A stretch of 64,000 bases of DNA from an uncultured Pseudomonadales bacterium (GTDB lineage: Bacteria > Patescibacteriota > Microgenomatia > UBA1400 > UBA1449): positions 76,256 to 140,255 of the forward strand of contig CAYLQQ010000001.1 of assembly GCA_964386355.1 (NCBI GenBank). Reading direction: 5' to 3'. The notes under the pieces were generated by a model. It had not been told where the DNA came from, did no database searches, and worked only from the letters and a program-made list of their open reading frames with translations. Made by a program: the position numbers and the translations under genes. The number at the start of each line of letters is the position of its first letter. Positions within the stretch are counted from its first letter, which is position 1. Shown piece after piece: positions 6,036-64,000 of this stretch.

Positions 6036-9000
6036 TTAGTGGTTGACTTCACTCCAGACATACTGGTAGATTTTGAAGGCTTTGAGGTCTGACTCGGTAG
6101 TCTTGAGCGTATAGATCATATCTGCGTTGTGTTCAAACTTTTCCGCCGGTGTCTGGTTGTCAGCTCCCTGCATATGCCTCCAGAGATTCACCCCTCTCCA
6201 GCCGATCAACCCACCACGGATAAGTAGACGGTTGGCATCAACATCATCTTTGTATGAGCTTGTTGTAATATACTCATCCGCAATATAAAAGCCATCAAGT
6301 TGTGCTACTCCATCGCTTATGTAGATATTACCCTTCTGCCCTCCCGTACTATCCTGATTTCCCGATATAAGGACAAAGATGCCTCCTTTGTCAGTTATGA
6401 TGTCACCTAAGATATCCACCCTACCGCGGTACAGGATCGCTATTTGGCGAGAACCCAAATTAGTTACGCCGCTCGTGCTCCCGATTACCAGGGGAAATTG
6501 GTCAGCTTCAATCTCATAGATCCCGTTTGGCCACGATGCGATGTTTGCAACATCAGCTTTACTTTTCCCATACGTCGTATAGTCAGCCAGTTTATCCTGC
6601 CAAAACGCATAATTATAGGTATCCTTTTTGACATAGGTTCCTGCCTGAGCCTCCAGAGCATAGTCACCAAAATCTCCTCCCTGATCTGCATTATAATCTA
6701 TACCACCCTCGTTCCAGGTGGCTGATCCACCAGATTCAATCAGGCTCTCACCGCTGGGAACAATGCTCTGTATAGCCCTTTCTGTGCCTCCTCCGTAGTT
6801 TGAGAATACATTTCCGATACCAACCTGCCACCAAGCATCAGGGTAATTACCGCCGATAAGTTCAGAGTGGCAATTGTTAAAATTATATTCCCCGATAATC
6901 CTCCTGGTCATATAAAGGCTCAGGCCAGCTGCATCAAAATGGCAAACTTGTGTTTCAGAAGGTAAGTTTGGGTTGCCTTCAACTAATAGTTCCGGATTAG
7001 AACCGCTGCAGGTAAACCTCCGGTATTTTGTTTCTGATACATCAGCGTAGCCGGCAGCACTAAAACCAGTCACCATATCAGGAAAGGCAAATGTGACATC
7101 CAATGGATAGGTTTGCTCGGGTGGGCTGTACGTTTCTTCAGTATCACTATAGGGTGCTTGGTAAAAAATAAAGTTACAATTCTCTCCGCATCCAGACGCT
7201 TGTGATTGGTTTTCGTACTGCATTTTTTTATCCTGTGTTGCATCAGTTGCTGTTGTTAACAAGGGTTTCATATAGTAATTACCACCAATCTGTATGACAG
7301 CTCCACATACATCAGTCCCGGCATAGCTGTTGCTTTGGATACTGACTGAATATGATGAGCCTCCATTTATTGAGGTAGAGAAATACCCTGTATTATCAGT
7401 AATGAGTGGGGTAATTTTTATTGTATCATCTACAAGTACTGTAATACCCTCTATTCCGGGACCATCAGAGGAGTTACTTCGCACATAACCAGCTACAATA
7501 TAGGGTGTGACAAAGCCGATATTACAATTGGAAACTACAGGTGAAGATCGATAAACTGTTCCGCTTGCATCAGAAAAGTGCAAATTAGCTGTCAAGGGAA
7601 TCGTATAGTTTTTGTTCTCATTATATGTATGTGTTGCAATAACACTATCCATGCTAGGAGGTGGCGATACAGTTTGTGTGTCTGACCCATCTCCAAAATC
7701 AAGAGTAAGCGAGTAAACCTGTTCCCTACCGTTGACAGCCGCATTCTTAAATGTCGCGGCAAAGGGGAATGTGCTTGGAGAGATTGATACAAAATCGTTT
7801 ATACGGCAACTCGATTTTGGTAATGGGTACATTTGGAAATCACAACTGCTTGTGGCACATCCTCCAACTTGCGTTTGGTTGACATAACTCAATTTTCTGT
7901 CCAGATACGTTAAAGGAGGAAACTGGTAGCCCGATATTGACTGGCTGGGAATCGTGATTGAATAGGTATCACCTTCACATAAATCCAAAACCGTAGAATA
8001 GTTACCGCCACTGTCAGTCTTTAAACTGTACGTTTGTCCAGTTTTATCATGCTTGACCACAACATTTACATCTTTAATTACTGGTTTTGTCCCGACTAGT
8101 AACCCCTCTATATCATACCGACTACGAATATTACCTTTGATTTGCGTTTTTTGACATATAGTACCGACAGTAACTGCAGTATCACAGGTAGCTTGCCTGC
8201 CCCCATCATCGCTAACTGTAAGCACAGCTGATTTAATTCCTGAAGTTGTGTAGCTCGTTGTTACACTTGCACTAGTAAGGCTGCTATACCCTGTTGCTGA
8301 ACTATCTAATAGCCAATTAAAGCGTACAGTTCCTATTCCTCCCTGAGCGTCTCCCTGATGCGTAAAAATGTCGCTTCCAGTATTACCGCTTGTGGGATTT
8401 GAGCTTGCGTTACATGTCAAATTTGGAACAGTATTTACTGTGACTGTCGTATCACAACTGGCTTTTTTACCAGAGCTGTCTTGAATATTTAGGATTGCTT
8501 TTTTAGAACCGCCAGTTGAGTATTTTGTAGCTACACTAGAACTAGTCAGCACTCCACTCTCCAGGGCTGAATTATCAAGTGTCCAACTATACGTCACTGC
8601 GCCAATTTGGCCCGAAACCTCACTCAGGTGAGTAAATATGGTGTTGTTTGGATCACCGCTTAGTGGATTTGATGAGGCTTTGCAAGTCAATACTGCACCA
8701 TCAATCACAGTAACTGTCGTATCACAAGTAGCTTGCCGACCCAAGCTATCCCTGACTGTAAGGATGGCTTTTTTTGACCCTGAAGTTGAGTACTTTGTGC
8801 TTACATTGGATCCAGTTAGCGATCCTGGTTCTAATGCTGAACTATCAAGCGTCCAGTTATAGCTTACTGAACCAGACTGTCCTTGAACAGTGCCCTGGTG
8901 TATAAAAATTGTACTACCTGTAGTGCCTTCGATTTGATCAGAGGTGGCTGTACACGTTAATGCAGTTGCATTACACGATGAGCGTACTTCATTACTTTTT

Positions 9001-10823: not shown

Positions 10824-10887
10824 AAATATTTATGTATTTACTATTATTGATTGGCAGAATTTTGTCAATAAGAATGCATAAATATTC

Positions 10888-11982
10888 CTAGCGCAGTCCC
10901 CCAACAACCTTTACCTTTGCAAGTAGTTTTTCATCATCTAAAACCTTACCACACCCGCGGACTACGCAGGTTAGTGGATCATCAGCCACCCATACAGGCA
11001 TTTTAGTCTCTTCTGCCAGGAGCTTATCCAAACCTGGAAGTAATGCTCCTCCGCCAGCAAGCACAATACCATTTTTAATGATATCGGCAACAAGCTCAGG
11101 TGGCGTTTCTTCCAAGGTTTCTTGTGTTGCTGAGATAATCTGGCTAACTATCGGGGCAATGGCTTCACGGATTTCCTCGCTATTAACCTTTATAGAGGAA
11201 GGCAGGCCTTTTTCCATAGATCTACCTCGAACGACATGTTGTTTTTCTTTATCAAATGGATACGCCGAACCGATAGCAAGTTTCACTTCTTCAGCTGTAA
11301 GCAATCCGATGATAAGGCCATATTTTAAGCGCATGTAGGCAATAATTGCCTCATCAAACTCATCTCCAGCAGTTCTCAAACAACGCTCAACAACGATGCC
11401 TCCCAGAGAAATAATTGAAATTTCGGTTGTACCGCCACCAATATCAATAATCAGCTGGCCTTGCGGGTCTGTGACTGCAATACCTGCTCCAATTGCTGCA
11501 GCCATTGGCTCCTCAATCAAATAAGCCTGCCGAGCACCAGCCGAAAGCGCGGCTGACTGAACAGCTCTTCGTTCAACTTCTGTCACACCAGATGGAATAC
11601 CAATCACCACCCGAGGCCGAAGGACTTTTGGAAAAACTGAGGGTATCTCGTGGATCTTGCGGATATAGTTCCTGACCATGGCAGATGTTGCATCAAAATC
11701 TGAGATCACCCCATCCCGCAAAGGCCTAACTGCTTCAATAGTTTGAGGTGTTTTGCCAAGCATTTTTTTAGCTTCGCTACCTATTGCAATAACTTTACCC
11801 ACATTACTACCTTGAACATTTACCTTTTTTTGGCGGGCTACTACTGAGGGTTCACGTATCATGATCCCCCTGCCTTTAATGTACACAAGAGTATTTGAGG
11901 TACCTAGATCGATACCCAGATCGTATGTAAAAAAATCCCAGAGATTATGTGACAAGTGTTGGGTACAAGTGGCGGGTAACAA
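10888..11982 (-). CDS. mreB: Rod-shape-determining protein MreB (actin-like ATPase), paralog 1
   Basis: GIDLGTSNTLVY phosphate-1 motif; DIGGGTTE; MreB-like length and gestalt. Confidence 0.85.
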   Translation of the reverse strand: MLPATCTQHLSHNLWDFFTYDLGIDLGTSNTLVYIKGRGIMIREPSVVARQKKVNVQGSNVGKVIAIGSEAKKMLGKTPQTIEAVRPLRDGVISDFDATSAMVRNYIRKIHEIPSVFPKVLRPRVVIGIPSGVTEVERRAVQSAALSAGARQAYLIEEPMAAAIGAGIAVTDPQGQLIIDIGGGTTEISIISLGGIVVERCLRTAGDEFDEAIIAYMRLKYGLIIGLLTAEEVKLAIGSAYPFDKEKQHVVRGRSMEKGLPSSIKVNSEEIREAIAPIVSQIISATQETLEETPPELVADIIKNGIVLAGGGALLPGLDKLLAEETKMPVWVADDPLTCVVRGCGKVLDDEKLLAKVKVVGGLR

Positions 11983-32207: not shown

Positions 32208-34157
32208 TTACCGAGCAATATGTATCGTAATTTCCTTCTCCCCTATCACATTTCCATTCTTATCCTTGGCTACAAACTTGATTTTGTATGGACCAGTACC
32301 GTTCCATGTCCATGGTCCCACATCAACCCAAGACTCTTTGTGAGGATAGTCCTGCTGAGAATCTCCCATTTCATTCAAATTTCCTCCATCGACCTGCCAG
32401 TACATCTTGTAGTCACCTAAGCTCAAAGCATATATAACGGCTTTAAACGGTTGAGTACCCGAAACACTTACCCCATCGCCCGGCCACCAGACATCTATTG
32501 TTTGATTGGTTGAAGGAGGATTGGAAGGATTCCCCGTTGGGGAAGGAGTTGGAGTCGGGCTTACCGTTGGACTCACCGTTGGAGAGGGTGTGGGAGTTAC
32601 AGTAGGTAAAGGCGTGGTTGTTGGTGTCGGGCTTGGAGTCACTGTTGGTTGCGCCGTAGGCGTAGGTGAAGGACTAACTGTCGGTGTGGGAGTTGGTGCA
32701 ACTACATTCTGCACAGTGAAGGTGAAATCCTGATTCCAGACCAAATTGCTTGACCAGTTCGATGTAAATATACCCACCGCAAACATATAGTTTCCGGTTT
32801 GGGTTGGAGTATACATCTGACTGTACTGCTTGGTTTGGTTAGCTGAGAAGTTCTCGTTCTCATAATAGTGCTGAAACACTTTTTGCCCGTCTTTATAGAC
32901 CTCAAGGTCAATAATGTAGCCATTTTGCTGACCTATTGTGTTATTTTTGACAGATGCTTGTAAAGTAATAGTCTTGTTGACCGCAACAGGATCAGGTGTA
33001 ACTGATGGAGTCACTGTGAAACTGGCTGGCACTACAGGCACTGACGTGGGTGTCGGTGATGGGCTTGGAGTGGGGGTTGGACTACCAGATGGTGTTGGGG
33101 TCGGTGAGGGATTGCCATTAAAATATGATGCCAGTACTCCCTCTGCGATCTTGTTCTGGGGTGTATAGCCTGTATCACCTGCTCCACCAGCATTAGGATT
33201 GACACTCCAGTCCCAAATGTGTAAACCTCCAAAATATCCTTTGTCCTGCCAGTATGAGAGTAAGGCCTCATATGCCATAGCCTGGTCTTCCTGACTGACT
33301 GCCCCGCCAGAACCATAGTCCCAGGGACGATTGTATGAATTATCTACACTTCTGTAGCCTATCTCAGTAAATACCAACGGTTTGTTGTACTGAGCTTGCC
33401 ACCAGGATAGGTACGTCGTATTTATGTAGTCCCACTTGTCTTTGAGTTCGGCAACGGTATTCCCCTGCAAATTGTAATATCCAGATACTCCTAATATGTC
33501 CAGATCATTCCAAAACTGAATATTCTCCATCTCAGCTTCCCATCCCCCACCCTCATTCCGCTGAGCCGAATATGTTAATTTTCCACTATATACTTGCCGT
33601 ACTCCCCCAATGATATTTTGCCAGTTTGTCGTATTGGTCGGGTTCCAAGTGCCTGAAGCCATTTTGATCAACTCTGCACCCAATGTCATTTCCTCGGCAT
33701 TGCCAGCAGCAGCCACTACCGCAAAACGCTGGACATGGGAATTGTAATTATTAAACCAGGTCATTCTGTCAGAAGGATCAATATGGGCCCGCCACTCTCC
33801 GGTATAAGACTCAACATGCATCTTGACGTTAACTCCCATTCCCTGCGAGTGAGCGTAAGCAATACCGTCAGCCAAACTCTGCTCTGTCGGCGTATTCCAG
33901 CCTGAATGTACATCAGTAGAATAAAGATTTGACTGATATACAGGTACAATAAGAGTTACGTAGTTAACTCCAATGGCTTTGGCGTCCTGTATTGACTGCT
34001 TAAAAGAGTTGGAAGAAAAATCAGTGGTTGAGTTGGGGACAACTGATATTGACTTGGTCCAGGTAGATATCTCTGCTCGTGCCCCCGATATTGGGATGAG
34101 AGCAAAGATAAACAGAATTATAAAAAGGGTAAAAGAGATGTGCAATGTGTGTTTCAT
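32208..34157 (-). CDS. Secreted clan GH-A glycoside hydrolase (GH5/GH26/GH113-like, possibly mannanase) with Pro/Thr linkers and C-terminal beta-sandwich domains
   Basis: Signal peptide MKHTLHISFTLFIILFIFALIPISGARA; catalytic-like QRNEGG (acid/base) and VFTEIGY (nucleophile); PSPTPTPSGSPTPTPSPSPTPTS linkers. Start placed at MKHTL (34157). Confidence 0.65.
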   Translation of the reverse strand: MKHTLHISFTLFIILFIFALIPISGARAEISTWTKSISVVPNSTTDFSSNSFKQSIQDAKAIGVNYVTLIVPVYQSNLYSTDVHSGWNTPTEQSLADGIAYAHSQGMGVNVKMHVESYTGEWRAHIDPSDRMTWFNNYNSHVQRFAVVAAAGNAEEMTLGAELIKMASGTWNPTNTTNWQNIIGGVRQVYSGKLTYSAQRNEGGGWEAEMENIQFWNDLDILGVSGYYNLQGNTVAELKDKWDYINTTYLSWWQAQYNKPLVFTEIGYRSVDNSYNRPWDYGSGGAVSQEDQAMAYEALLSYWQDKGYFGGLHIWDWSVNPNAGGAGDTGYTPQNKIAEGVLASYFNGNPSPTPTPSGSPTPTPSPSPTPTSVPVVPASFTVTPSVTPDPVAVNKTITLQASVKNNTIGQQNGYIIDLEVYKDGQKVFQHYYENENFSANQTKQYSQMYTPTQTGNYMFAVGIFTSNWSSNLVWNQDFTFTVQNVVAPTPTPTVSPSPTPTAQPTVTPSPTPTTTPLPTVTPTPSPTVSPTVSPTPTPSPTGNPSNPPSTNQTIDVWWPGDGVSVSGTQPFKAVIYALSLGDYKMYWQVDGGNLNEMGDSQQDYPHKESWVDVGPWTWNGTGPYKIKFVAKDKNGNVIGEKEITIHIAR

Positions 34158-34238
34158 AGTAGAACCAGAGTAGAGTTCCAGTACGAAAACCACACACGAG
34201 TTACTTAAGAGAAGAATGATAGATATTGAAGAGTTACA

Positions 34239-39547: not shown

Positions 39548-40792
39548 TTGGACATTACCCCCACGCGTTCTGACTTTGTACCTTCATCAAGACAGCCCAA
39601 TCTTCATAACCTAAATTACATAAGTTTTATTGCTCTCATTTCATTAAACTCAATAAGATTGCCCTTCCATAGTACAATTACCAGTATGACTAGCCCAGAA
39701 GAACACAGACATTTGTTGAATATAATAGAATCTCAGCACGTAGTCAGTCTTGAGAGGGGTAAGACTGCCAAAGTAACGACAGTCACCTTCCCGCCTACAT
39801 CGAGAATTTCACTCGTTTGGGATGAGGCTTTGACCGAGCATGGTATAAAAACTGAGCCGGGAAGCTTGCTCATTGATCAAAAAGCTACTGCAACACTGAT
39901 TGGCCGTCCTGCCGGTATACATCCCAGTACTGCTATGACTGAATACGAAAATTCCTATGTTTTCCCAGGTAATCACTTTGGATGGCAGTATGGGGCGTAT
40001 TTTATAAATGATGGGCACTTGATTGGCTTACCAGATGATCCTACAAATAGAATCCTCAATTTTCTTATCCGCAACCAGCAGGGTGAGTGGGATGACAGAC
40101 ATCTCGAGCTCCGGAATGGTTCTCTAGCTAGAGAAACTGATATATCAGATATCGCACATGGATTAAGCGGCCCATTTATTGTCAGAAATGGTGAAGAGCA
40201 ACCTGTCAGAGAGTTGTTGAGTAATCCCCGCCTGTTAGCTGATCCCCGCAATGTGCTTGATTTTTCCAACACTAACCAGTTTAATTTTGTTAATGCTGAG
40301 GAAAAGCGAGAGTTTTGGCAACTGATCCGAAAAGCTTTACCATACAACCCTTCCCTGTTGAGTTGGCTTTGGGATAGAGAAATACCAGTTGAGTATAATC
40401 TTCAGAGTATCAGTGATGTTGAGTATGCAAAGCTGCGGTACCTAATTGCCAAGTCAAGAATGGATCACCTAACTCTGGATAGAGATGATGAGCAAATACT
40501 TATGGAGATAAGTCGTACTCTACCTTATCAACGCATGCCTCTCATGGCTATCGGAATAAATAAAGATAACTCTTGGTTTGTCATAGCTGCAGACGGAAGA
40601 TCATCGGATAGTGCAGGGCTGACTATCACAGAATTAGCACAGCAATGTGTCTTAAAAGGAGCTTATCATGCCATATTAACTGCGGGTGGTGGAGATGTAT
40701 TTATTGGAAATAAAACGAAAGGAAAATTTAAAACAGTAAACTCTCCATCTAATCAGTTACGACCGTATCCATTGTGGATAAAAGTATATTAA
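39548..40792 (+). CDS. Phosphodiester glycosidase (NAGPA/DUF2233)-domain protein
   Basis: C-terminal AIGINKDNSWFVIAADGRSSDSAGLTITELAQQCVLKGAYHAILTAGGGDVFIG. Probable start at the internal MTSPEE (~39686). Confidence 0.5.
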   Translation: MDITPTRSDFVPSSRQPNLHNLNYISFIALISLNSIRLPFHSTITSMTSPEEHRHLLNIIESQHVVSLERGKTAKVTTVTFPPTSRISLVWDEALTEHGIKTEPGSLLIDQKATATLIGRPAGIHPSTAMTEYENSYVFPGNHFGWQYGAYFINDGHLIGLPDDPTNRILNFLIRNQQGEWDDRHLELRNGSLARETDISDIAHGLSGPFIVRNGEEQPVRELLSNPRLLADPRNVLDFSNTNQFNFVNAEEKREFWQLIRKALPYNPSLLSWLWDREIPVEYNLQSISDVEYAKLRYLIAKSRMDHLTLDRDDEQILMEISRTLPYQRMPLMAIGINKDNSWFVIAADGRSSDSAGLTITELAQQCVLKGAYHAILTAGGGDVFIGNKTKGKFKTVNSPSNQLRPYPLWIKVY

Positions 40793-40813
40793 TGCAATTA
40801 ATACATTACAGGA

Positions 40814-42055
40814 TTACCTCCTAACAAATAAAATTGCATTAGGAATTGCCCTGCCCGGACCGGCTTTATATCCCCCGTACCACAGAGCGGTTGAGCCACC
40901 GCTATCCAAATTCAAGGCGTCTTCAAACCCAAGTGCCTTGTGGGCATACGCAGCCTCGGCAACCGTGGCATTGTAAACCACCCCAATATAGACAGTGTTT
41001 CCCTTGTGGGAAACAAAACTGCGGGTGCCTTTACTTCCTTTTTTGGGGTCTCCATCGCCCCCAAATGCAATATTTCCTCCCGATAGCGTCATCGGCTGGT
41101 TGGCGATCATACTATCAATGCCAGTATCTCTGCCCCAGTCTAAAGATCTACCGACAAACCGTACCCATGAACCGCCAAATACAACCGCCGGAACTGTACT
41201 ATAGACATTATTATCTGAGTTGAAGTAGGCTTTATTTTTGTTCATCAACAAGGTATCAAACGAGTTGGTCTTACCCGCACAAGAGGGGTATGAAGCCGGG
41301 CAAAAGTATGATCCGTTTATGCCTGCATATGCTCCATTTCTCGATACGTAATCACCAAGCGCTAGCACAGGACAATTATCCCTACAGTCGGAATCTGAAG
41401 CTGTATCTACGATTACCTTAGTTGAGCTCAAATCGCCTGCCACCATCGAAACCAGAAATTCGCCCACTTCCGTGCTCACTTTTTGGCTGGAATAGCCTGA
41501 TCCGGGAGGTGTATTTGAACTGGGAGCTGATGCCGGGATGTTGAAGCTGGCTACCAGCCTATCCTGTTCAGTCTGAATTTTTTTAGATAAATTAGTCAGC
41601 TCAGCTGATGCAGTAGAGTAGTCACGTTTTGCAAGTATTGTCAATGTTTTACTAAATGCTGCATCCAATTCCGCGGTTTTTGATGTCCCCTCTCTCAGTT
41701 TAACCAGCTTTTCGTAGACTGTAACCGCCTGCTGATACGTATTTTCAATTTCTGTGATAGTTGACTGTAGCTTGTCATTACGTATTTTCTGATCCTCATT
41801 CTCAAGTATTTCAAGCTGGGCAGATACTGAGGCGATTTGCGCTGACATTGAGGCAATCTGCAGTTGTAATATACCCTTATCCTCAGTAAGCTGCTTGACC
41901 TGTAGGTAGTTACGCATTATTTCCTTCTGTTGAGACCTTCCAAGAAACAACACATAATATGACCCAAATCCAAGCAGCATGGTTACTGCCAATATCGAAA
42001 TTGCAAAGATAAGATGATTTCGTATTGCATGTGCTATGGGCAGCGAAAGCTTCAT
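40814..42055 (-). CDS. Membrane-anchored coiled-coil protein with C-terminal phosphodiester glycosidase (NAGPA-like) domain
   Basis: TM LIFAISILAVTMLLGFGSYYVLFL; heptad-rich segment; C-terminal ALNLDSGGSTALWYGGY. Confidence 0.55.
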   Translation of the reverse strand: MKLSLPIAHAIRNHLIFAISILAVTMLLGFGSYYVLFLGRSQQKEIMRNYLQVKQLTEDKGILQLQIASMSAQIASVSAQLEILENEDQKIRNDKLQSTITEIENTYQQAVTVYEKLVKLREGTSKTAELDAAFSKTLTILAKRDYSTASAELTNLSKKIQTEQDRLVASFNIPASAPSSNTPPGSGYSSQKVSTEVGEFLVSMVAGDLSSTKVIVDTASDSDCRDNCPVLALGDYVSRNGAYAGINGSYFCPASYPSCAGKTNSFDTLLMNKNKAYFNSDNNVYSTVPAVVFGGSWVRFVGRSLDWGRDTGIDSMIANQPMTLSGGNIAFGGDGDPKKGSKGTRSFVSHKGNTVYIGVVYNATVAEAAYAHKALGFEDALNLDSGGSTALWYGGYKAGPGRAIPNAILFVRR

Positions 42056-42175
42056 ATAACGAACCAAAGTAGAGTACGTTTGTTTTATTTATTAAATGTA
42101 GCATATTTTTAATCAGTTTCTGTGTTATACTCTTGGCCATGTATAAATAATATTAATTAAAATTTAATTGTATAT

Positions 42176-52931: not shown

Positions 52932-53939
52932 TTATCTCCTCGATAAACTCTTTTTATACATATCCAAGTGTTCTAAAACCACACCTGTTCCTTTGGCAAC
53001 GCAGAAAAGCGCATCTTCAGCTACATAACAGGGAATTCCCGTCTCTTGGGATAAGAGAGAGTCAAAATTTGCCAACATGCTTGTCCCCCCTGTCATAACT
53101 AATCCCTTATCAATAATATCTGAAGCAAGTTCCGGGGGAACTTCCTCAAGAACTTTCTTTACCATTGTTACTATTTGAGAAAGTGGATGGCTAAACGCTT
53201 CAACAACATCATTGCTGCTTATCTGGAGGCGCTTAGGTAAGCCGGATACTACATCCCTACCTTTAACCATCATTGTTTTTTCCTGTTTCAATTTCAGGGC
53301 TGAACCGATACGTAATTTAACTTCTTCTGCAGTTGTTTCTCCAATGATCAGACCATAACGCTTGCGTACCCATGCTATAAGGCCATCATCAAGCCTGCTT
53401 CCTGCTACACGCACTGAGCGATGAACAACTACTCCTCCTAGAGAAATGACTGCAGATTCTGCTGCTCCACCACCAATATCTAAAACCATATTTCCTGAAG
53501 GTTCGCCAATGGGTACCCCTGCGCCTATAGCAGCAGCTAATGGCTCCTGAATAATGTAAACCGATGATGCCCCGGCAGCTATGGTGGCATCCTCTACAGA
53601 CCGTTTCTCAACTTGTGTTGCTCCAGCAGGTATGCAAATGAGCACCTCAGGTCTAAAAAACATAGATCGCCCTACTGCTTTTTGGATAAAGTAACGCAGC
53701 ATTGCCTCAGTTATAGAGTAATCGGCAATGACTCCATCGCGCATCGGACGCTTTGCAAGAATATTTCCCGGTGTTCTACCGAGCATTTCTTTAGCTTCAT
53801 GACCAACTGCAACCACTTTCTTATCGTATACAGACACAGCTACAACTGTCGGTTCATTGAGGACAATACCTTTACCCGCCACATATACAAGCGAATTTGC
53901 AGTTCCTAAATCGATGCCAATACGAGAGCGAAAAGACAT
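52932..53939 (-). CDS. mreB: Rod-shape-determining protein MreB, paralog 2
   Basis: IGIDLGTANSLVYV, DIGGGAAE. Start at MSFRSRIGIDLG. Confidence 0.85.
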   Translation of the reverse strand: MSFRSRIGIDLGTANSLVYVAGKGIVLNEPTVVAVSVYDKKVVAVGHEAKEMLGRTPGNILAKRPMRDGVIADYSITEAMLRYFIQKAVGRSMFFRPEVLICIPAGATQVEKRSVEDATIAAGASSVYIIQEPLAAAIGAGVPIGEPSGNMVLDIGGGAAESAVISLGGVVVHRSVRVAGSRLDDGLIAWVRKRYGLIIGETTAEEVKLRIGSALKLKQEKTMMVKGRDVVSGLPKRLQISSNDVVEAFSHPLSQIVTMVKKVLEEVPPELASDIIDKGLVMTGGTSMLANFDSLLSQETGIPCYVAEDALFCVAKGTGVVLEHLDMYKKSLSRR

Positions 53940-54183
53940 TATAAATGTACCAATTTCCAATGATCAATTTATAATTAGCCCTTAAATATGCTATTTTAAA
54001 AATAAATATAAGCCTCACGAACTACATTGAGAATTGGTTTTGTAAATTATGTTTTTCCTATACAAACCCATCTTTAGGCATTATAATCTACCCATATCGG
54101 GAAAACAAAACAAAATGGAATAGTTTTCTCTCTCTGTTCACTACGGAAACTATACTATAATAATTTTAAATATAAATTAAAAC

Positions 54184-55560
54184 ATGAATCAACGGCTTCT
54201 CATTACTTTAGCTATTGCCATTTTCCTTGTTGGGGGAACTATTTTTGCAATCCGGTGGGCTCAAGGGTATCGATATAATGTAAAAAACCAAACTCTTGAG
54301 GGAAATGGCTTATTGGTAGTTAATTCCCTACCCAAGGGAGCAACCGTATACATTGATGATGAACTTTCTACTGCCACCGATGATACGCTACATATGTCAC
54401 CGGGTGAGTATGCAATCCGCATAGAAAAAGACGGATATAATACTTGGAATAAAAAGTTAAAACTTGAAAAAGAGCTTGTTACCCAAACTAATGCCCGCCT
54501 ATTTCCCTCTGTTCCGAACCTGGCAGCACTCACTGTTAATGGAGCAAGTAATATAACACCTTCTCCAAATGGACAAATGCTTGCTTTCCAAATTGCCACA
54601 GGCTCAGCCCAAATAAAGTACGGTATTTGGGTGCTCAATATGAGCGAAGGTATGCTGCGCGGTGGGGGTAGTGCTGTGCAGGTTATCAAAGATACTGCTA
54701 ACTTGGAATTTTCGAAAGCGCGACTCTTCTGGAATCCAAACTCAAGTGAAATTTTAGCCTACTTTTCCGAAACACAAAGCTATCTTTTGCCTACAAACGC
54801 AGAACAGAAACCCCAAAACCTAATCAATGTTGCACTTCAGTTGCCCCTTATCATTGAAGATTGGCAAAAACAGATAGCCTTGCAGCAGCAAAAACGCTTA
54901 GCGAAACTACCTATACAGATGCAAGAGATCGCAACCCAGTCTGCTACCCTCCTCTATTTCTCACCAAATGAGAAAAAGCTACTCTACGTTGCTACACAGT
55001 CTGCCCAACTTGATGAAAATCTTATTCCGCCCCTACCAGCAATCAACTGCCAACCACAGGAACGCACCCTACATACCGGAACTGTCTATTTGTATGACAG
55101 TGAAGAAGATACTAATTTTGCGATAGCCCGTGATATGTTTGACCAAACACAACTACTTCAGATTGTGGATCAGTTTATGCTTCCTACTGTAACAGATGAT
55201 GAGATTGCAAATTTTCCCTCTACCAGCCCGTCACCCAGAATACCCACTAAAAAAACAGTTACCACCAAACAGTCGCCAACCAGTTTACAATTATTAACGA
55301 ACATTCATACCCATTATTCGCCAGTATATAGTCCCCTGACCTATCAGTGGTTCCCTGATTCATACCACTTAATATTGACTGGTAAAGACAAAGTAAGTTT
55401 GGTTGAATATGATGGGTCAAATGAAACTGAAGTCTACGGTGGTATGTTCCTTGAAGGTTTCTCCTATCCGTGGCCTAACGGTCAGAAGCTGGTCATTCTA
55501 ACATCTTTAACTACCAACCCCCTTACCTTTGCAAATCTGTACGGACTCAATCTAGAGTAG
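54184..55560 (+). CDS. Membrane-anchored PEGA-domain protein with a large C-terminal extracytoplasmic region (beta-propeller-like)
   Basis: TM LLITLAIAIFLVGGTIFAI. PEGA-like LPKGATVYIDDELSTATDDTLHMSPGEYAIRIEKDGYNTWNKKLKLEKE. Confidence 0.6.
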   Translation: MNQRLLITLAIAIFLVGGTIFAIRWAQGYRYNVKNQTLEGNGLLVVNSLPKGATVYIDDELSTATDDTLHMSPGEYAIRIEKDGYNTWNKKLKLEKELVTQTNARLFPSVPNLAALTVNGASNITPSPNGQMLAFQIATGSAQIKYGIWVLNMSEGMLRGGGSAVQVIKDTANLEFSKARLFWNPNSSEILAYFSETQSYLLPTNAEQKPQNLINVALQLPLIIEDWQKQIALQQQKRLAKLPIQMQEIATQSATLLYFSPNEKKLLYVATQSAQLDENLIPPLPAINCQPQERTLHTGTVYLYDSEEDTNFAIARDMFDQTQLLQIVDQFMLPTVTDDEIANFPSTSPSPRIPTKKTVTTKQSPTSLQLLTNIHTHYSPVYSPLTYQWFPDSYHLILTGKDKVSLVEYDGSNETEVYGGMFLEGFSYPWPNGQKLVILTSLTTNPLTFANLYGLNLE

Positions 55561-57941: not shown

Positions 57942-58586
57942 TTATTTTATAAATAAACTCCTGATCCAGTTAATAACTCGACTAAAGAAGTTTTTTTCGT
58001 TCAGTGCTTCTGTAGTCATCGCAGGTTCAGTAGTTGCGTGTGGACTGCTTATTTGCCCGAAACTGTCATAAGTTCCTGATACGGTAGGCTCTGTCGGATT
58101 ATGTACCCTACTTATGAGCCTAATGGAAAATAAGTCAGTTCTACCTTGAGAGACTGTAATGCTTCCACCCTGTATCAGAGGTATGTATGCAACTGCAGCT
58201 GTCCCGGTGGAAGGATTGATGCTTTGAACAGGAGAAAGGCTATGATTGCCCTGCCTGAGGCCATACGCTTGGTCAAAATCGTACTGAACCGGATCCCAAG
58301 TGATCTTAGCCGCCATTGTTTGCGTAGTACCGCCCTGAGACTCCATGACTACCGTTACTATTGTTCCGCTTTTGGCCACCAACGTAGAGGATGCTGGGTT
58401 ACTAATAAGTGAGAATACTGGATTATTTTGGTTTTTATCAACATAGTTTATTGCCTGAACTTCTCTGTCAATAAGAAGTAATCCACCAGTACCCATACCT
58501 AAAGCAATAATTATTAGAGCCAGAAAATTCAATTTGTACAGAAATTGCTTGGGAAATTTAAAAATACAGTTTCGAGCAAGTTTCAT
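57942..58586 (-). CDS. Membrane-anchored surface protein with one cohesin-like beta-sandwich module
   Basis: TM FLALIIIALGMGTGGLLLI. Module ...KITWDPVQYDFDQAYGLRQGNHSLSPVQSINPSTGTAAVAYIPLIQGGSITV... is homologous to the repeats in 60043..62118. Confidence 0.55.
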   Translation of the reverse strand: MKLARNCIFKFPKQFLYKLNFLALIIIALGMGTGGLLLIDREVQAINYVDKNQNNPVFSLISNPASSTLVAKSGTIVTVVMESQGGTTQTMAAKITWDPVQYDFDQAYGLRQGNHSLSPVQSINPSTGTAAVAYIPLIQGGSITVSQGRTDLFSIRLISRVHNPTEPTVSGTYDSFGQISSPHATTEPAMTTEALNEKNFFSRVINWIRSLFIK

Positions 58587-58591
58587 AAGGA

Positions 58592-60022
58592 TTACTGCCT
58601 AAATGGCGGTGCCAAAGGATCTTGTGGCGACTGCTGTGGTTCTTGCGGCTGCACATATCCCTGCATGTCTTGTGGCGCTTGCGGAACCTGCGGATCTTGG
58701 ACCATTTGCTCACCTTCTGCATTAAAATTTTGCTGAAGAGGCGGTAGTTCCTGATCATTTCCACCTCTAATAAATCTAACAAGCATAATACCTAAGATCA
58801 CCAGGACTACAAGTCCAATCCATGGCAGTATCTTGGCTAAGGTGAGCAGCAAACTCCCACCTCCTTGCTCGCTTGGCGCAATGGTAGCAACAGGCTCAAC
58901 TGTAGGTGTTGGCTGATTCCAGCTTTCTGTATCCCAATCATCATACAAACCAGAAGAAGTGGCCTGCGGTGGGGTTTCAAGAATAAAGGGTGTAGAAGTT
59001 GGAGCGAGCGTAGCTCGTGGAGCAACTGTTGGACGAGGAGTAGTACGTACTGTTGAGCCAGTACCACCGGAATATGTGGCTTTACCCGCAACTGCCTTTG
59101 CACCGTCTGAATATCCCGAAGACGCACAATCATTTACGGAAGTAACTACAAAATAGTACAAGACACCAGGTCTTAATCCTGTGACGAGAAACTGGTCAGT
59201 ATTGCCTATATTGGGACTGCCGTATTTAAAATCCATCCATTTTTCTCCAAATGTAACGGTGTAATGTGTCGTATTTTCTGTCCTAGTCCAGGTCAGTTTG
59301 ACCGTGCCCGGTTTTACTCCGGTTGTAGCAACCAGGTTAGTTGGTCTAGATGGATATTCTTTTGTACACCAGGGACCCCGGTATGGTTCTGATCCGGTGG
59401 TTGGTATGCTTGGACTACCTCCACCTGTACCGTCAGATATGTTTGTGTATAACGCCCCTTCTGAACCGCGACAAGTAAATACATTATCACCTCGCTTGTA
59501 AATACCACTGTTTGCACAATCAATCGTGAACTGGATCTCGTCTTTACTAAGAGGTGTAAACTCAATATTGGCAAAGTACCCAGTCCCGTTATACGTTTGC
59601 TCTAAACTGGTAAACAAACCGCTGACCCGGATAATCCCGTTAGAATTGTCTGCATAGGTATTTACGTATTTGTTAAAAACCACTCCATCAGTTTTTGGAT
59701 TTCCATCTACTCTAACCCGATTTTTATCATACTTAATCACAATATCAGCAGAATCAACAGCGTGACTGGCTGTATTTATCTCAATTCTAAATGTACTTTT
59801 TGTATCTTTTCGTAAAGCAGTTTCATTTTGTATGAGCCTAAATATTGCATTTGCTGTTTCTCCCACAAACACCTCAGGTATTGCATCTGATGAGGTAGTC
59901 ACATCCCGCTTGTCAGGCACACCGTATATAGATATTCCTATAATCACTATCCCAAAAAGCAGAAGTAACGCCATGGATATAAACGAAATAAGCCGGGAAT
60001 GTTTGTTAGCAGCAGGTTTCAT
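58592..60022 (-). CDS. Type I membrane surface protein: N-terminal signal anchor, cohesin-like module, FN3 domain, Pro-rich linker, C-terminal TM plus Pro/Gln-rich cytoplasmic tail
   Basis: DIVIKYDKNRVRV...ANIEFTPLSKDEIQFTID (cohesin-like); TVKLTWTRTENTTHYTVTF...LRPGVLYYFVVTSV (FN3); C-terminal TM LPWIGLVVLVILGIMLV. Confidence 0.6.
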   Translation of the reverse strand: MKPAANKHSRLISFISMALLLLFGIVIIGISIYGVPDKRDVTTSSDAIPEVFVGETANAIFRLIQNETALRKDTKSTFRIEINTASHAVDSADIVIKYDKNRVRVDGNPKTDGVVFNKYVNTYADNSNGIIRVSGLFTSLEQTYNGTGYFANIEFTPLSKDEIQFTIDCANSGIYKRGDNVFTCRGSEGALYTNISDGTGGGSPSIPTTGSEPYRGPWCTKEYPSRPTNLVATTGVKPGTVKLTWTRTENTTHYTVTFGEKWMDFKYGSPNIGNTDQFLVTGLRPGVLYYFVVTSVNDCASSGYSDGAKAVAGKATYSGGTGSTVRTTPRPTVAPRATLAPTSTPFILETPPQATSSGLYDDWDTESWNQPTPTVEPVATIAPSEQGGGSLLLTLAKILPWIGLVVLVILGIMLVRFIRGGNDQELPPLQQNFNAEGEQMVQDPQVPQAPQDMQGYVQPQEPQQSPQDPLAPPFRQ

Positions 60023-60042
60023 ATCAAACTTTTGATCAATAC

Positions 60043-62118
60043 TTAATTATCATCAGGCCTGCTCAGCAGAACCTCACGGACGATTGAGTAGTCCAATAAA
60101 TTGACCACTCCATCATAGTTCACATCAGCAATATTAAGCTTGGATGCTTCGGGAGCTGTCAAAGAGGTGATATTGTTGAATATGGCTGAAAGATCATATT
60201 CGTTAGCCAAACCATCCTGAGCTGTCTGATTCCATGGCAGATCTCCGGGCATAAGCGGATAGGCAGTAAGGTCAATATTTGTGTTTGTACCTGGAATACT
60301 ATTCACCCTTCTTCTCAGGTGTTTTGGACCTTTGATACGAATAGCCAAATCTCCAGTATAATTTCCCAGGTCAAAAACAATAGGACCTGCAGTAAAGGTT
60401 CCACTAGTTACCGTTCCGCTGCGGAATACACCATTTGTATCAGATTCAAATGTTACAGTTTTTGTTTGTAAAGGAGTATTCCCACCGGAAGGAAGAACAT
60501 CAACTACAGCCTGAATAGACACACCCGGCTTGCTAACTTTGTAGAGCTTTGCCTTGATATTCAATCCTTGGGATGGGTCAGGATCGGTGCTAGACGTTAC
60601 TTGAATGGAATTTACGTAGCTGCAAGCACCACTAACAGATCCAAGTGTTGTAAGAATACGGTACTTAGGAGTAAATGTACCTGTTTGAGTGTATGTATGC
60701 GTAATATATCCATTGGGGGATGGATCAAAATAATCAGTATCCCAAGTCCCATCACCCTCAAAATCAACCTGGTACCCTTGTATTCCGCCTGTACCATCCA
60801 CTCCTCCACCAACATAGATGTATGCAGAAAGTGGCGCCGCACCGACAACTGTTTCCCGGTACTCATATTCTCCTTTGGAAATATAAATATTAGCTGAGCA
60901 TCTTGGAACTGAATTTACACATCTTCCATCTACACACCCTTGTCCGGTACCACAGGTAACGTTGCTACATGCATCACTTGTTTTACATGTCTTTGAAGTA
61001 GCATCCCAGCACCCGTTAGGACAGTCACAGCTCGTAGTAAACGCTTGGGTGCATGCTGATCCCCTATTGCAGAGATCTGCACAGCCATCACTAAACTCTC
61101 TCCAAGTTCCACCTGCAGCAGCACATGCTTGCTGTTCACTAGGGTTGGTATCACCAACATATTCAATTTGGCCAGTACCTACAGGCATGCTTGGATTGGA
61201 AACCTTACTGATTAGTTTAATAGAAAAAAGGTCAATGTTACCTGAAACTACAGTTATATCTCCACCCTGGACCATGGGAATGTAAGCTACTGAGGCAAAG
61301 CCTTCACTGGTATTGATAGTCTGTACGGGATTGAAACCGTGCGAAGCCTGCCGTAACCCATAGGTCTGGTCAAAGGTGTACTTGGCTGGGTCCCAGCTGA
61401 TTTTAGCAGCTATGGTTTGTGCCTTGCCTGCTGTGCTGCTCATTTTCATGGTGACCACCGTGCTGGCATTGGCTGCTATGCTTGTAGCTGTAGGATTTGT
61501 GGAAATTGAAAAGGCAGAAGACTGCTCACAATCCACTGCACAGCTGGTAGCTGTCTCTCCACTCTCACAAACGTTGTTGCCACAGCTTGAGCTAGCTACA
61601 AAGCCATCATAGGTCCCTGTTGCAGCAGGGGTTGTGGGGTTAGCTACTTTGGCAGTCAGCTTAATGGTAAACAGGTCTACATTTCCTCCAGGCAGAGTTA
61701 TATCTCCACCCTGGACCATGGGAATGTAAGCTACTGAGGCAAAGCCTTCACTGGTATTGATAGTCTGTACGGGATTGAAACCGTGCGAAGCCTGCCGTAA
61801 CCCATAGGTCTGGTCAAAGGTGTACTTGGCTGGGTCCCAGCTGATTTTAGCAGCTATGGTTTGCACTGTACCAACACCACTAGACATTTTCATATTGACC
61901 ACAGTACTAGCGTTAGCTGATAGAGTAGTTGCCGAGGGGTTAGACGAGAGAGAGAAAGTAGGCTCACCAGTGGTCCCTCCGACAAATATATCGGGTTGAG
62001 TTTGCTGCTTATGCTGAATAAGATACTGTATTACCAGAGATAAGGGAGCTAAAATCATAATCGCAACTGCGATTATGATTTTAGAATTTACTTGAGTGGT
62101 TTTGGGTGTCTGTTTCAT
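60043..62118 (-). CDS. Secreted surface protein with two near-identical cohesin-like modules, Cys-rich CExGET..C..DC linker, beta-sandwich region and C-terminal dockerin-like Ca-binding loop
   Basis: Signal anchor; repeats ...KISWDPAKYTFDQTYGLRQASHGFNPVQTINTSEGFASVAYIPMVQGGDIT... x2. C-terminal DVNYDGVVNLLDYSIV (D-x-N-x-D-G-x-x-N-x-x-D). Confidence 0.65.
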   Translation of the reverse strand: MKQTPKTTQVNSKIIIAVAIMILAPLSLVIQYLIQHKQQTQPDIFVGGTTGEPTFSLSSNPSATTLSANASTVVNMKMSSGVGTVQTIAAKISWDPAKYTFDQTYGLRQASHGFNPVQTINTSEGFASVAYIPMVQGGDITLPGGNVDLFTIKLTAKVANPTTPAATGTYDGFVASSSCGNNVCESGETATSCAVDCEQSSAFSISTNPTATSIAANASTVVTMKMSSTAGKAQTIAAKISWDPAKYTFDQTYGLRQASHGFNPVQTINTSEGFASVAYIPMVQGGDITVVSGNIDLFSIKLISKVSNPSMPVGTGQIEYVGDTNPSEQQACAAAGGTWREFSDGCADLCNRGSACTQAFTTSCDCPNGCWDATSKTCKTSDACSNVTCGTGQGCVDGRCVNSVPRCSANIYISKGEYEYRETVVGAAPLSAYIYVGGGVDGTGGIQGYQVDFEGDGTWDTDYFDPSPNGYITHTYTQTGTFTPKYRILTTLGSVSGACSYVNSIQVTSSTDPDPSQGLNIKAKLYKVSKPGVSIQAVVDVLPSGGNTPLQTKTVTFESDTNGVFRSGTVTSGTFTAGPIVFDLGNYTGDLAIRIKGPKHLRRRVNSIPGTNTNIDLTAYPLMPGDLPWNQTAQDGLANEYDLSAIFNNITSLTAPEASKLNIADVNYDGVVNLLDYSIVREVLLSRPDDN
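61254..61869 (-). repeat. Recent intragenic duplication: ~165-bp identical blocks at ~61254..61419 and ~61706..61869 encoding the cohesin-like module core
   Basis: atatctccaccctggaccatgggaatgtaagctactgaggcaaagccttcactgg...cagctatggtttg is identical in both places. Confidence 0.8.
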
Positions 62119-62138
62119 GATTCAGAATAGCAAATTTG

Positions 62139-63890
62139 TTACCACTGCATTGTATTAAGTACGATTATGATGGCCGGACCAATCTGAGCATCGGTAAACT
62201 CTGTCCCCCATTTATTGAGGATATATACAATATCCTGTATCGTTACCGTGCCATTCCGGTCGTAGTCGCCCTTGATCTGACACGTGTTTGCATGCCACAT
62301 GCAGTCAGTTCTACCAGTGCAGGTAGTTTGAGATGTGACCCCAGAACACGTTGTTCCTCCACAGTCTGCTGCACAGTTTGCTGTTGTTTCACCTGCTTCA
62401 CAATAGCCGTTTAGTTCACACTTACTTACGGGGGTTATACAAGCAGAACCATTCCAGCATTTCCCGATTCCACACTGACAACTGTACTTTGTCAAATCTA
62501 CTACATCAATATTTGTTGATCCGGCACATAAGCTTGCAGCCAAAGTTTGACGTGTTGAATATTTGGCAGGCTCTCCTCCCTGCTCTCGGCAGGTCGTGCC
62601 ACCCTGGATATTTGTTAAAGGAATACAACTGCTTACATCCCAGAAACAGTCATTACGGGCTTGACAATTAGTTTGACTTAAGCCTGGGCATGACAGCGAG
62701 CTAACGGTAAATGTGCCTGGTCCAAATAGATTATTTTCATCAGACTCCATAACAGTATTAGTTGAATCAACTAATACATACATCTTATGCTCACCTACGC
62801 TAAGTGTATTTGCAGCAAACGTATGGGTCGCTTCAGCAGTACCACCAGGGTTAAGAGTCGCGCTGGTAAAGGTTTTAGTACTGGCTGTTGAGTTGGTTGG
62901 TGGAACAGTAGCCGGATCTACAAATAGCTTGTACGTGAATCCATTGGCTGATGCATCACCTATATTTTTGACTGTAACTTTTATCGAGACTGTGTCAGTG
63001 GTTTTGGGCTGTGTTGGAGTAACTACCACTGAATGTGAGATCAGGTTGGGCTTATTTGTACCAGGAGGGTTAACGCAGGCTGTTCGTGCATCATTGAGCA
63101 CCATTCCGGCCGGACAACAGTCATAAATATTGTCAATAGCAGATTTGGAAAGACATTTTATTGTATTAGGATCAGCATTCTGTAAAGATTTAAATGTACA
63201 GGATCTTCCGCTTGGACACAAAGGATTATTGCATGTATTAGGATCAAATTTGCCATATGAATTACAATATTGAAGAGCTGGAGTGCTACCTGCTAATGTA
63301 AAATCATTTGCCAGAGCTACCTGATTAGCTGATGAGTCTTCAAGGGATATAACGTTATTGGGGCTGATAGCTACAAGCTTAGTTTCATTAGTATTCTTTC
63401 GGAAAAATTTAAATGTATACAGTTTTAAAGGAGTTGTGCCCGTCTGCTGCAAAGCTGCAGTGGCATTTGATGCTAAAAATGACATGGTTATTTTACCTGT
63501 CGTGTACGACTGTGTCCTAACGGTACCTCCATCAGGGACATCCGTCATAATATTTGTAATTGCATCACCACGAGTAAAGCCTCTCAACTCAAGATCTGCA
63601 GTCGGAAACGAGTAATCAATATCAATACCAACTATTTTTTTAGTCGCAGTACCAGTTTTTTGCTTGATCATAAGATCCAGAACCTGTAGACCTGTATTAT
63701 CAACACCGCCATTTACAAAGTACAGTTCCATCTGTGCGCTTGTTGGGCCTTCCTGTACGAACTGTTCTGACCCCTTTTGTACAGGAGCCATTGATTTTGT
63801 ACGTACTAAAATGAGAGATCCGATAATAACTAAGGCTAAAACACTCAGCATTGATATGATATATATTTTATGAAGGGACGTTTGGTTCAT
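62139..63890 (-). CDS. Secreted surface protein: cohesin-like module, CARDB domain, multiple Cys-rich modules, C-terminal dockerin-like loop
   Basis: Signal anchor. CARDB-like VSIKVTVKNIGDASANGFTYKLFVD...VLVDSTNTVMESDENNLF. CELNGYCEAGETTANCAADCGG. C-terminal GDYDRNGTVTIQDIVYIL. Confidence 0.6.
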   Translation of the reverse strand: MNQTSLHKIYIISMLSVLALVIIGSLILVRTKSMAPVQKGSEQFVQEGPTSAQMELYFVNGGVDNTGLQVLDLMIKQKTGTATKKIVGIDIDYSFPTADLELRGFTRGDAITNIMTDVPDGGTVRTQSYTTGKITMSFLASNATAALQQTGTTPLKLYTFKFFRKNTNETKLVAISPNNVISLEDSSANQVALANDFTLAGSTPALQYCNSYGKFDPNTCNNPLCPSGRSCTFKSLQNADPNTIKCLSKSAIDNIYDCCPAGMVLNDARTACVNPPGTNKPNLISHSVVVTPTQPKTTDTVSIKVTVKNIGDASANGFTYKLFVDPATVPPTNSTASTKTFTSATLNPGGTAEATHTFAANTLSVGEHKMYVLVDSTNTVMESDENNLFGPGTFTVSSLSCPGLSQTNCQARNDCFWDVSSCIPLTNIQGGTTCREQGGEPAKYSTRQTLAASLCAGSTNIDVVDLTKYSCQCGIGKCWNGSACITPVSKCELNGYCEAGETTANCAADCGGTTCSGVTSQTTCTGRTDCMWHANTCQIKGDYDRNGTVTIQDIVYILNKWGTEFTDAQIGPAIIIVLNTMQW

Positions 63891-63904
63891 ATAGGTACCT
63901 CTAG

Positions 63905-64000
63905 TTATTTAGTATATTCAAATACAGCTTTTTTAAGTTCTCTGTAGTCAAGAGCATTAATTTTCTCATCTTTATTAAAATCTTTGCTGGCATCAAATGT
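63905..64000 (-). CDS. 3' end of a further surface-protein gene (runs off window) ending in a dockerin-like loop
   Basis: Hand translation ...TFDASKDFNKDEKINALDYRELKKAVFEYTK-stop; DFNKDEKINALD fits D-x-N-x-D-x-x-x-N-x-x-D. Confidence 0.45.
   Translation of the reverse strand, partial: TFDASKDFNKDEKINALDYRELKKAVFEYTK

Follow-up and report, generated by a model that had tools for sequence, protein, structure and literature searches.

The five-gene cluster

We analyzed a cluster of five genes whose products carry cohesin-type and dockerin modules, located at the end of a 64,000-nucleotide stretch (the window) of contig CAYLQQ010000001.1 from an uncultured bacterium (assembly GCA_964386355.1). 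As described in an earlier note on this DNA, the genes are co-directional and lie on the minus strand. Four open reading frames (ORFs), here named A to D, are complete and span 57942-63890; of a fifth, E, the window holds only the last 31 codons (Table 1). The intergenic gaps are 5-20 nucleotides long, and no convincing minus-strand terminator was seen inside the cluster. Thus, the cluster reads as an operon. The N-terminus of E lies beyond the window edge; Logan contig L002, which is 100% identical to the window over 2167 nucleotides, extends it and provides a 620-residue fragment of E.

Hydropathy analysis revealed exactly one strongly hydrophobic N-terminal helix in each of the complete proteins, A to D. 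A second hydrophobic helix, near the C-terminus, was found in B alone, so the claim that one of the proteins is membrane-anchored holds for B, at the level of prediction. The proteins have an extracytoplasmic character. C, D and E contain 18, 26 and 34 cysteines, respectively, and the motif C-x-x-G-E-T-x3-C-x2-D-C occurs once in C, once in D and nowhere else in the window. Together with the FN3 domain of B and the CARDB domain of D, this bears out the module types that the note had listed. The start of gene A differs between gene calls: the NCBI call (184 amino acids) omits the N-terminal hydrophobic helix, while the Logan call (214 amino acids) includes it. In addition, Logan contigs break inside C or E. 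Independent Logan assemblies of the same organism (L002, L014 and L015) end inside gene C, at around window position 61800, a pattern that fits a collapse of the assembly at the two 71%-identical modules of this gene.

Table 1. Genes, modules and other features discussed in the text, with window positions (aa, amino acids; HMM, hidden Markov model).
Feature	Position	Strand	Description
Gene A	57942..58586	-	214 aa; N-terminal hydrophobic helix, one divergent cohesin-like module, short tail (ORF, hydropathy)
Cohesin-like module of A (type-1)	58047..58433	-	residues ~52-180; HMM E value 8.8e-71; 48-51% identical to the C modules
Gene B	58592..60022	-	476 aa; N-terminal helix, cohesin, FN3, Pro/Thr linker, transmembrane helix, Pro/Gln-rich cytoplasmic tail (predicted)
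C-terminal transmembrane helix of B	58778..58852	-	residues 391-415 (predicted); hydropathy 2.55 over 19 residues
FN3 domain of B	59108..59350	-	residues 225-305; Pfam fn3 E value 6.7e-8; PDB FN3 matches
Cohesin domain of B	59429..59878	-	residues ~49-198; Pfam PF00963 27.2 bits, domain scanned alone
Gene C	60043..62118	-	691 aa; N-terminal helix, two cohesin-like modules, Cys-rich region, PKD-like domain, beta domain, dockerin
Dockerin of C	60058..60249	-	residues ~624-687; first loop degenerate QTAQDGLANEYD, second canonical DVNYDGVVNLLD
Beta domain of C, just before dockerin	60247..60603	-	residues ~506-624; no Pfam match
PKD-like domain of C	60628..60831	-	residues 430-497; weak: ColH PKD 4jgu_A E value 0.0099; Pfam PKD_4 E value 0.054, below cut-off
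Cohesin-like module 2 of C	61144..61530	-	residues ~197-325; HMM E value 4.7e-72; 71% identical to module 1
Cohesin-like module 1 of C	61591..61971	-	residues ~50-176
Perfect 16-bp hairpin, 4-nucleotide loop	62049..62084	-	codons 12-23 of gene C, encoding KIIIAVAIMIL
Gene D	62139..63890	-	583 aa; N-terminal helix, cohesin-like domain, Cys-rich, CARDB, Cys-rich, dockerin-like tail
Dockerin-like tail of D	62142..62276	-	last 45 residues; one canonical Ca-type loop DYDRNGTVTIQD and helix, then a loop-less hydrophobic helix
CARDB domain of D	62730..63050	-	residues 281-387; Pfam PF07705 E value 1.1e-13
N-terminal cohesin-like domain of D	63276..63773	-	residues ~40-205
Gene E, 3' end	63905..64000	-	last 31 codons and stop (63905-63907); second repeat of a two-repeat dockerin DFNKDEKINALD
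GH113 and CARDB protein, secreted-looking	32208-34193		24 kb from the cluster; without dockerin

Cohesin-type and dockerin modules

The cohesin and dockerin modules of the operon are real but very divergent. With the Pfam cut-offs of 24.1 bits for Cohesin (PF00963) and 22.9 bits for Dockerin_1 (PF00404), scans of whole proteins missed the cohesin and under-scored the dockerin, and domain-wise scans revealed both. In this way the N-terminal domain of B passed as a cohesin. Its ortholog in the related locus L012 scored 46.4 bits (E value 6e-12, profile positions 9-135 of 139), and the L001 ortholog had no Pfam Cohesin match. When a profile of three B-cohesin orthologs was compared with the PDB, four chains were matched, all of them cohesins (best E value 0.029).

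A second family is formed by a motif module of ~125 amino acids. The note had counted six copies of it in four proteins; we found three copies in two proteins, one in A and two in C, and no other in the window, as the earlier count had merged three families. The copies are 48-71% identical (BLASTP E values 1e-42 to 1e-47, HMM domain E values of ~1e-71). The module gave a confident structure model, for which cohesins ranked first among the fold matches of two programs: Foldseek listed 26 cohesins before any other fold, so this check proposed in the note came out in favor of its reading. The best structural match was the ScaC cohesin solved with the ScaB dockerin (4uyp/4uyq). Fold matches also included non-cellulosomal structures, namely 2xdh, a cohesin of Archaeoglobus fulgidus, and 2vo8, 2w1n and 2jh2, cohesin/dockerin modules of Clostridium perfringens glycosidases. 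Aligned by hhalign, the profiles of the module family and of the B cohesin matched at 77% (E value 2e-5, 58 columns). B and D do not contain the motif; each begins with a different beta-sandwich domain, and single-sequence hhalign comparisons of these two domains with the module were negative. In A, the module is followed by a short hydrophobic/amphipathic C-terminal tail, FFSRVINWIRSLFIK, which is kept in the ortholog fragment P0004.

The module is rare. An exhaustive profile search of 1.84 billion cluster representatives recovered it in four proteins, A and C among them, and no relatives were found in GTDB representative genomes, in JGI metagenome contigs (searched by pattern) or in viral contigs. 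A word-indexed homolog search returned only A itself for A and nothing for the domain of B. Type-2 modules, present in loci L003 and L011-L013, are ~25% identical to those of the window and have a longer C-terminus, but are still homologous (hhalign 85%).

With the N-terminal domain of D, the cluster holds five cohesin-type domains in three sequence families (one each in A, B and D, and two in C). One of them, in B, is a cohesin at the family level and was identified by its sequence; the fold-level tests, which asked for an elongated beta-sandwich (jelly-roll) that superposes on solved cohesins, used modeled domains, and at this level three (A and C) are well supported and one (D) moderately.

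Type I dockerins consist of two tandem segments of ~22 residues, each a 12-residue Ca2+ loop (Asp/Asn at positions 1, 3, 5, 9 and 12) followed by a helix. The loops DVNYDGVVNLLD, DYDRNGTVTIQD and DFNKDEKINALD, at the C-termini of C, D and E, are the only such loops among the long ORFs of the window. All three had been described as single loops, which is true for D alone, since those of C and E are the second repeats of two-repeat dockerins. C passes Dockerin_1 over its last ~65 residues with 25.0 bits (profile positions 6-56 of 57), and E over its last ~55 with 28.7 bits when the tail is scanned alone, or 23.9 bits for the whole fragment; together, the two matches span positions 4-56 and hence both repeats. 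Moreover, a joint profile of the C and E dockerins found solved type I dockerins in the PDB at an E value of 2.6e-8, again over both repeats. Of the two Pfam checks proposed in the note, the one against Cohesin therefore succeeded for B and left the A/C module and the D domain unmatched, and the one against dockerin succeeded for C and E and failed for the D tail. The suggested cohesin-dockerin architecture is supported, as B and its ortholog pass Cohesin and C and E pass Dockerin_1.

The tail of D is of a different kind. Its profile best matched the ScaB dockerin in the PDB (4uyq_B, E value 0.0038), over the first repeat only. Compared with its L001 ortholog the tail is 96% identical, and 24 codons differ synonymously against two non-synonymously. 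This indicates strong purifying selection, and thus a constrained interface rather than a recent transfer. A C-terminal sorting signal was considered for this tail and rejected, because the tail lacks a basic end and its hydrophobic stretch is not long enough. P0008, an unrelated metagenomic protein of 940 amino acids, carries CARDB repeats and a single dockerin-like repeat, YDVNKDGKLDVGDLVLLI, at its C-terminus, so one-repeat dockerin-like tails on CARDB proteins may be more widespread.

In C, the dockerin is preceded by a beta domain that always accompanies it in relatives, and both are 100% identical in two L001 genes. The pair is reminiscent of X-module–dockerin dyads, a likeness we offer as a suggestion.

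B is the candidate anchoring protein of the cluster, akin to an anchoring scaffoldin. Around its transmembrane helix, a stretch of 27 amino acids is identical in the L001 ortholog despite 26 nucleotide differences out of 81. Such constraint, unusually strong for a membrane anchor, hints at a specific intramembrane or cytoplasmic partner. The cytoplasmic tail retains the motifs LPP.QQNFNAEG and QDPLAPPF.

Within the window, cohesin-type and dockerin modules are found in this operon only. The dockerin bearers, C, D and E, are devoid of catalytic and carbohydrate-binding modules (CBMs); they carry PKD-like, CARDB, Cys-rich and EGF-like modules only. No CBM or SLH match was obtained for the cluster proteins in Pfam or NCBIfam, and the NCBIfam scan gave nothing useful for them. 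This bears on the possibility that A to D are scaffoldins of a true cellulosome-type complex, recruiting dockerin-bearing glycoside hydrolases encoded elsewhere in the genome. The scaffoldin-like architecture, in which C has two cohesin-like modules in tandem and B a membrane-anchored cohesin, would fit such a complex, as would the presence in the same window of the GH113 enzyme and two NAGPA-type glycosidases. Nevertheless, we consider it improbable, as no enzyme of the window bears a dockerin loop or a Pfam dockerin and the three dockerin bearers display adhesion-type modules without a CBM. The label 'cellulosome-like' used in the note is consequently not supported, and neither is a link to the secreted glycoside hydrolase that it placed near the cluster, which lies 24 kb away. 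The two NAGPA-type phosphodiester glycosidases and a 1595-residue PKD/CarboxypepD_reg protein (39548-42067 and 6036-10823) are among the secreted-looking proteins of the window. Dockerin loops are absent from these and from the GH113 protein, and the GH113 and NAGPA proteins also had no Pfam dockerin match.

It is hardly credible that the cluster encodes a covalent, pilus-like or isopeptide-stabilized fiber of CnaB/pilin-type domains. In contrast to the CnaB- and DEv-IgG-type domains of Gram-positive pilins and MSCRAMMs, no cluster protein has a C-terminal LPXTG-type sorting motif, and there is no conserved isopeptide lysine, since type-2 modules have Ser or Asn in place of the sole invariant lysine of the type-1 module. 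Nor is a sortase gene adjacent, and Foldseek places cohesins first.

Related loci and co-variation

Syntenic loci were recovered by exact-protein look-ups. The cluster is kept between ArgRS and an M16 peptidase in related metagenomic lineages (at least four). The order is ArgRS-E'-D'-C'-B'-X'-Y'-…-A'(frameshifted)-M16 in L001, LeuRS-ComEA-ComEC-ArgRS-E''-D''-C''… in L003/L005, and D-C-B-M16-NDK-PEGA-MreB… in L011-L013. These loci define a conserved core consisting of C (module, beta domain and dockerin) followed by B (cohesin, FN3 and transmembrane helix).

Comparison of the window with L001 and L003 revealed that affinities switch inside gene D. The E dockerins of L001 and L003 are 85% identical to each other, and that of the window is 51% and 45% identical to them, respectively; the same grouping is seen for the D cohesin-like domain (L001–L003 78%, window–L001 33%, window–L003 32%). 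The middle of D is equidistant (window–L001 54%, window–L003 49%, L001–L003 60%). From the D tail onwards, the window instead groups with L001: the tail is only 36% identical to that of L003, both in the window and in L001, and module 1 of C is 69% identical between the window and L001, 25% between the window and L003, and 26% between L001 and L003. When the window and L001 are set against L003/L012, identities are 36-38% for the D tail and 18-26% for the C module.

Each of these co-variation blocks thus extends from a dockerin, across the junction between two genes, into the cohesin-type module encoded by the following one. The two types of D tail are strictly matched to the two types of module in every locus in which both are readable. 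Between L012 and L013, the C module is 69% identical, while the C beta domain, C dockerin and B cohesin are 97-100% identical. Furthermore, the FN3 domain is conserved across lineages (74-81%), and next to it the B cohesin (29-35%), like the C dockerin (33-46%), is hypervariable. Together, these patterns suggest that the E dockerin pairs with the D cohesin-like domain, the D tail with the A/C module, and the C dockerin with the B cohesin.

The same comparisons bear on whether C and D might each self-polymerise into head-to-tail fibers, as the presence of a cohesin-type module and a dockerin on one polypeptide would allow. If so, a tail would be expected to co-vary with the module of its own protein, and it does not: in D of L001, the cohesin domain is close to that of L003 (78%) and the tail to that of the window (96%), and the C proteins of L012 and L013 share a 100% identical dockerin beside modules that are 69% identical. 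We therefore regard such homopolymers as very improbable.

The related loci also contain rearranged genes. L001 has an extra gene (10001-11932, encoding P0003) with a module, an unclassified domain, FN3, a beta domain and a dockerin, and the last ~160 residues of P0003, spanning the beta domain and dockerin, are 100% identical to the neighbouring C ortholog (L001 6390-8549). This points to a recent duplication or gene conversion of the beta-dockerin unit. An N-terminal leader of ~130 amino acids (MVSAHTA…, one transmembrane helix, FSW.PF) is common to the E orthologs, a 498-residue L001 protein and P0007 (L005 10001-11386 for P0007, L001 732-4166 and 11939-13435, and L003 6172-9987), and could be an extended signal or anchor module. 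P0007 itself resembles a fusion of E and D from which the greater part of each gene is missing. Frameshifts split the A ortholog in L001 (13994-14591) and the D tail in L013 (~1-330), as pseudogenes or assembly errors.

A hairpin within gene C (Table 1) folds as RNA with -20.7 kcal/mol (z -8.3). It is kept in the L001 ortholog (6424-6459), with one compensatory change from U-A to C-G and one new mismatch. This conservation suggests selection on the structure, and the hairpin may be part of the regulation of the operon.

Outside the cluster, the adjacent M16 peptidase has its closest GTDB match at 44% identity, in a metagenome-assembled genome with an unreliable label, which speaks neither for nor against the CPR membership considered in the note. 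The window also encodes two MreB paralogs (10888-11982 and 52932-53960) and a PEGA-domain membrane protein (54184-55560). The order M16-NDK-PEGA-MreB-HD-WecG downstream of the cluster is also found in L011 and L014.

A putative surface assembly and its relation to known systems

We propose, with a probability of roughly 0.6, that the operon encodes a non-enzymatic cohesin–dockerin assembly on the cell surface. Because its cohesin and dockerin modules come without enzymes, a membrane-anchored adhesion-type complex is most likely, and not a cellulose-degrading machine. Our model suggests that Ca2+-structured dockerins plug into the cohesin-type modules of other subunits and so form a hierarchical complex. 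In the wiring that best fits gene order and co-variation, the E dockerin would bind the cohesin-like domain of D, the D tail would bind the modules of A and C, and the C dockerin would bind the B cohesin, with B holding the complex on the membrane. A, with its module and hydrophobic C-terminal tail, could provide a second, small docking site. The large Cys-rich/EGF-like E protein would be displayed outside, together with the CARDB, PKD and FN3 modules. The likely role would be in envelope architecture or in adhesion, whether to a substrate, to a sibling cell or to a host, rather than in polysaccharide hydrolysis. Depending on whether the N-terminal helices are cleaved, the complex would be either secreted and then docked or a surface lattice with lateral cross-links.

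Several points weigh against this proposal. At the level of sequence, the A/C module reaches no Pfam family, with no Cohesin match even at an E value of 10, and has no sequence match in the PDB. The same is true of the D domain, which also has no sequence link to cohesins with a three-sequence profile, and its structure model is only moderately confident (predicted local distance difference test, pLDDT, 63). The first loops of C and E keep positions 5, 9 and 12 and lack the usual acidic residues at 1 and 3; the D tail has no Pfam dockerin match, a weak match to a dockerin otherwise, and no second loop. If the N-terminal hydrophobic helices carried by each subunit are uncleaved anchors, docking would be unneeded for retention. 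Dockerins without cohesin partners are, in addition, common (Peer et al. 2009, as cited in PMC6487960). Finally, the co-variation comes from few lineages and two 'types', and it is confounded by adjacency, because the dockerin-coding 3' end of one gene abuts the cohesin-coding 5' end of the next. Physical adjacency of the coding segments is thus an equally valid cause of the co-variation blocks.

Some of these points would be accommodated if the proteins were independent surface adhesins or envelope proteins. Their beta-sandwiches would then be generic Ig-like spacers or adhesin domains, their dockerin-type tails would be modules stabilized by Ca2+ that bind partners other than the neighboring proteins, such as glycans, the host surface or the cell wall, and there would be no network. 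Such an arrangement would agree with the failure of the A/C module and the D domain to match Pfam Cohesin, with the separate N-terminal helix of each protein, and with the wide occurrence of orphan dockerins recorded by Peer et al. (2009, as cited in PMC6487960). It would also agree with the proposal that a dockerin-domain envelope protein of a Saccharibacterium targets host glycans (PMC10633639). We nevertheless hold it to be rather unlikely. The domain of B is a cohesin at the Pfam level, and Foldseek puts 26 cohesins ahead of other folds for the A/C module. A single operon accounts for all five cohesin-type and all three dockerin modules, the co-variation blocks cross gene junctions, and the tail of D is under extreme constraint.

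A more specific form of the networked assembly can be put forward tentatively, as a possibility that the gene arrangement allows. It would be a four-tier, enzyme-free 'adhesosome' in which E docks on D, D on C (or A), C on B, and B reaches the membrane. Pairs encoded across gene junctions could be passed on and swapped as single recombination cassettes, switching specificity without breaking the chain. If the organism is a host-dependent ultrasmall bacterium, such a structure could be an attachment organelle with E at its tip.

In several respects the locus resembles the scaffoldin sca clusters of Acetivibrio cellulolyticus (ScaA/ScaB/ScaC) and Ruminococcus flavefaciens (scaC-scaA-scaB-cttA-scaE), which likewise are clustered genes with products that combine cohesins and a C-terminal dockerin. 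There, adaptor tiers end on a cell-anchored cohesin protein, as they would here. Unlike cellulosomes, the window locus has no dockerin-bearing enzymes or CBM, and B would be anchored by a transmembrane helix, not by SLH domains or a sortase. Unlike in the sca clusters, two of the three cohesin-type families are invisible to Pfam, each dockerin has one canonical Ca loop only, and every subunit has its own N-terminal hydrophobic helix.

Closer relatives in kind are the non-cellulosomal cohesin and dockerin modules catalogued by Peer et al. (2009, FEMS Microbiol Lett 291:1, as cited in PMC6487960), which occur outside cellulolytic organisms and, as that citation has it, often without cellulases. 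Here, by contrast, a self-contained set (five cohesin-type modules, three dockerins and a membrane anchor) is found in one operon, whose genes follow each other in the order of the proposed wiring. Enzymes and toxins are linked in the C. perfringens system, and adhesion-type modules only in the window locus. In the Saccharibacterium Southlakia epibionticum, a host-dependent bacterium of the uncultured type, SEML1_0315 is an essential dockerin-domain envelope protein for which a part in adhesion has been proposed (Wang et al. 2023, PMC10633639). By its description it is like the proteins studied here in having a dockerin on an envelope protein, and it differs in that no cohesin partner or multi-gene system is described there. 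In the literature searched, whose coverage is incomplete, we found no description of a self-contained, enzyme-free, multi-tier cohesin–dockerin operon. We regard the locus as a lineage-restricted variant of the non-cellulosomal cohesin–dockerin systems, and it fails the defining features of a cellulosome.

Cohesin–dockerin pairs are familiar mainly as the links that hold cellulosomes together and from their use in protein engineering, and their role outside cellulolytic bacteria has been little tested. The operon described here is a compact test case, with three divergent cohesin-type families, three dockerins, a membrane anchor and no enzymes, and it yields a concrete prediction of which dockerin should dock on which cohesin-type module. 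Pairs that bind specifically, if confirmed, would offer new orthogonal cohesin–dockerin specificities for synthetic scaffolds, and would be an example of interacting modules that are co-inherited across gene junctions. If the organism is a host-dependent ultrasmall bacterium, the system would be a candidate attachment apparatus.

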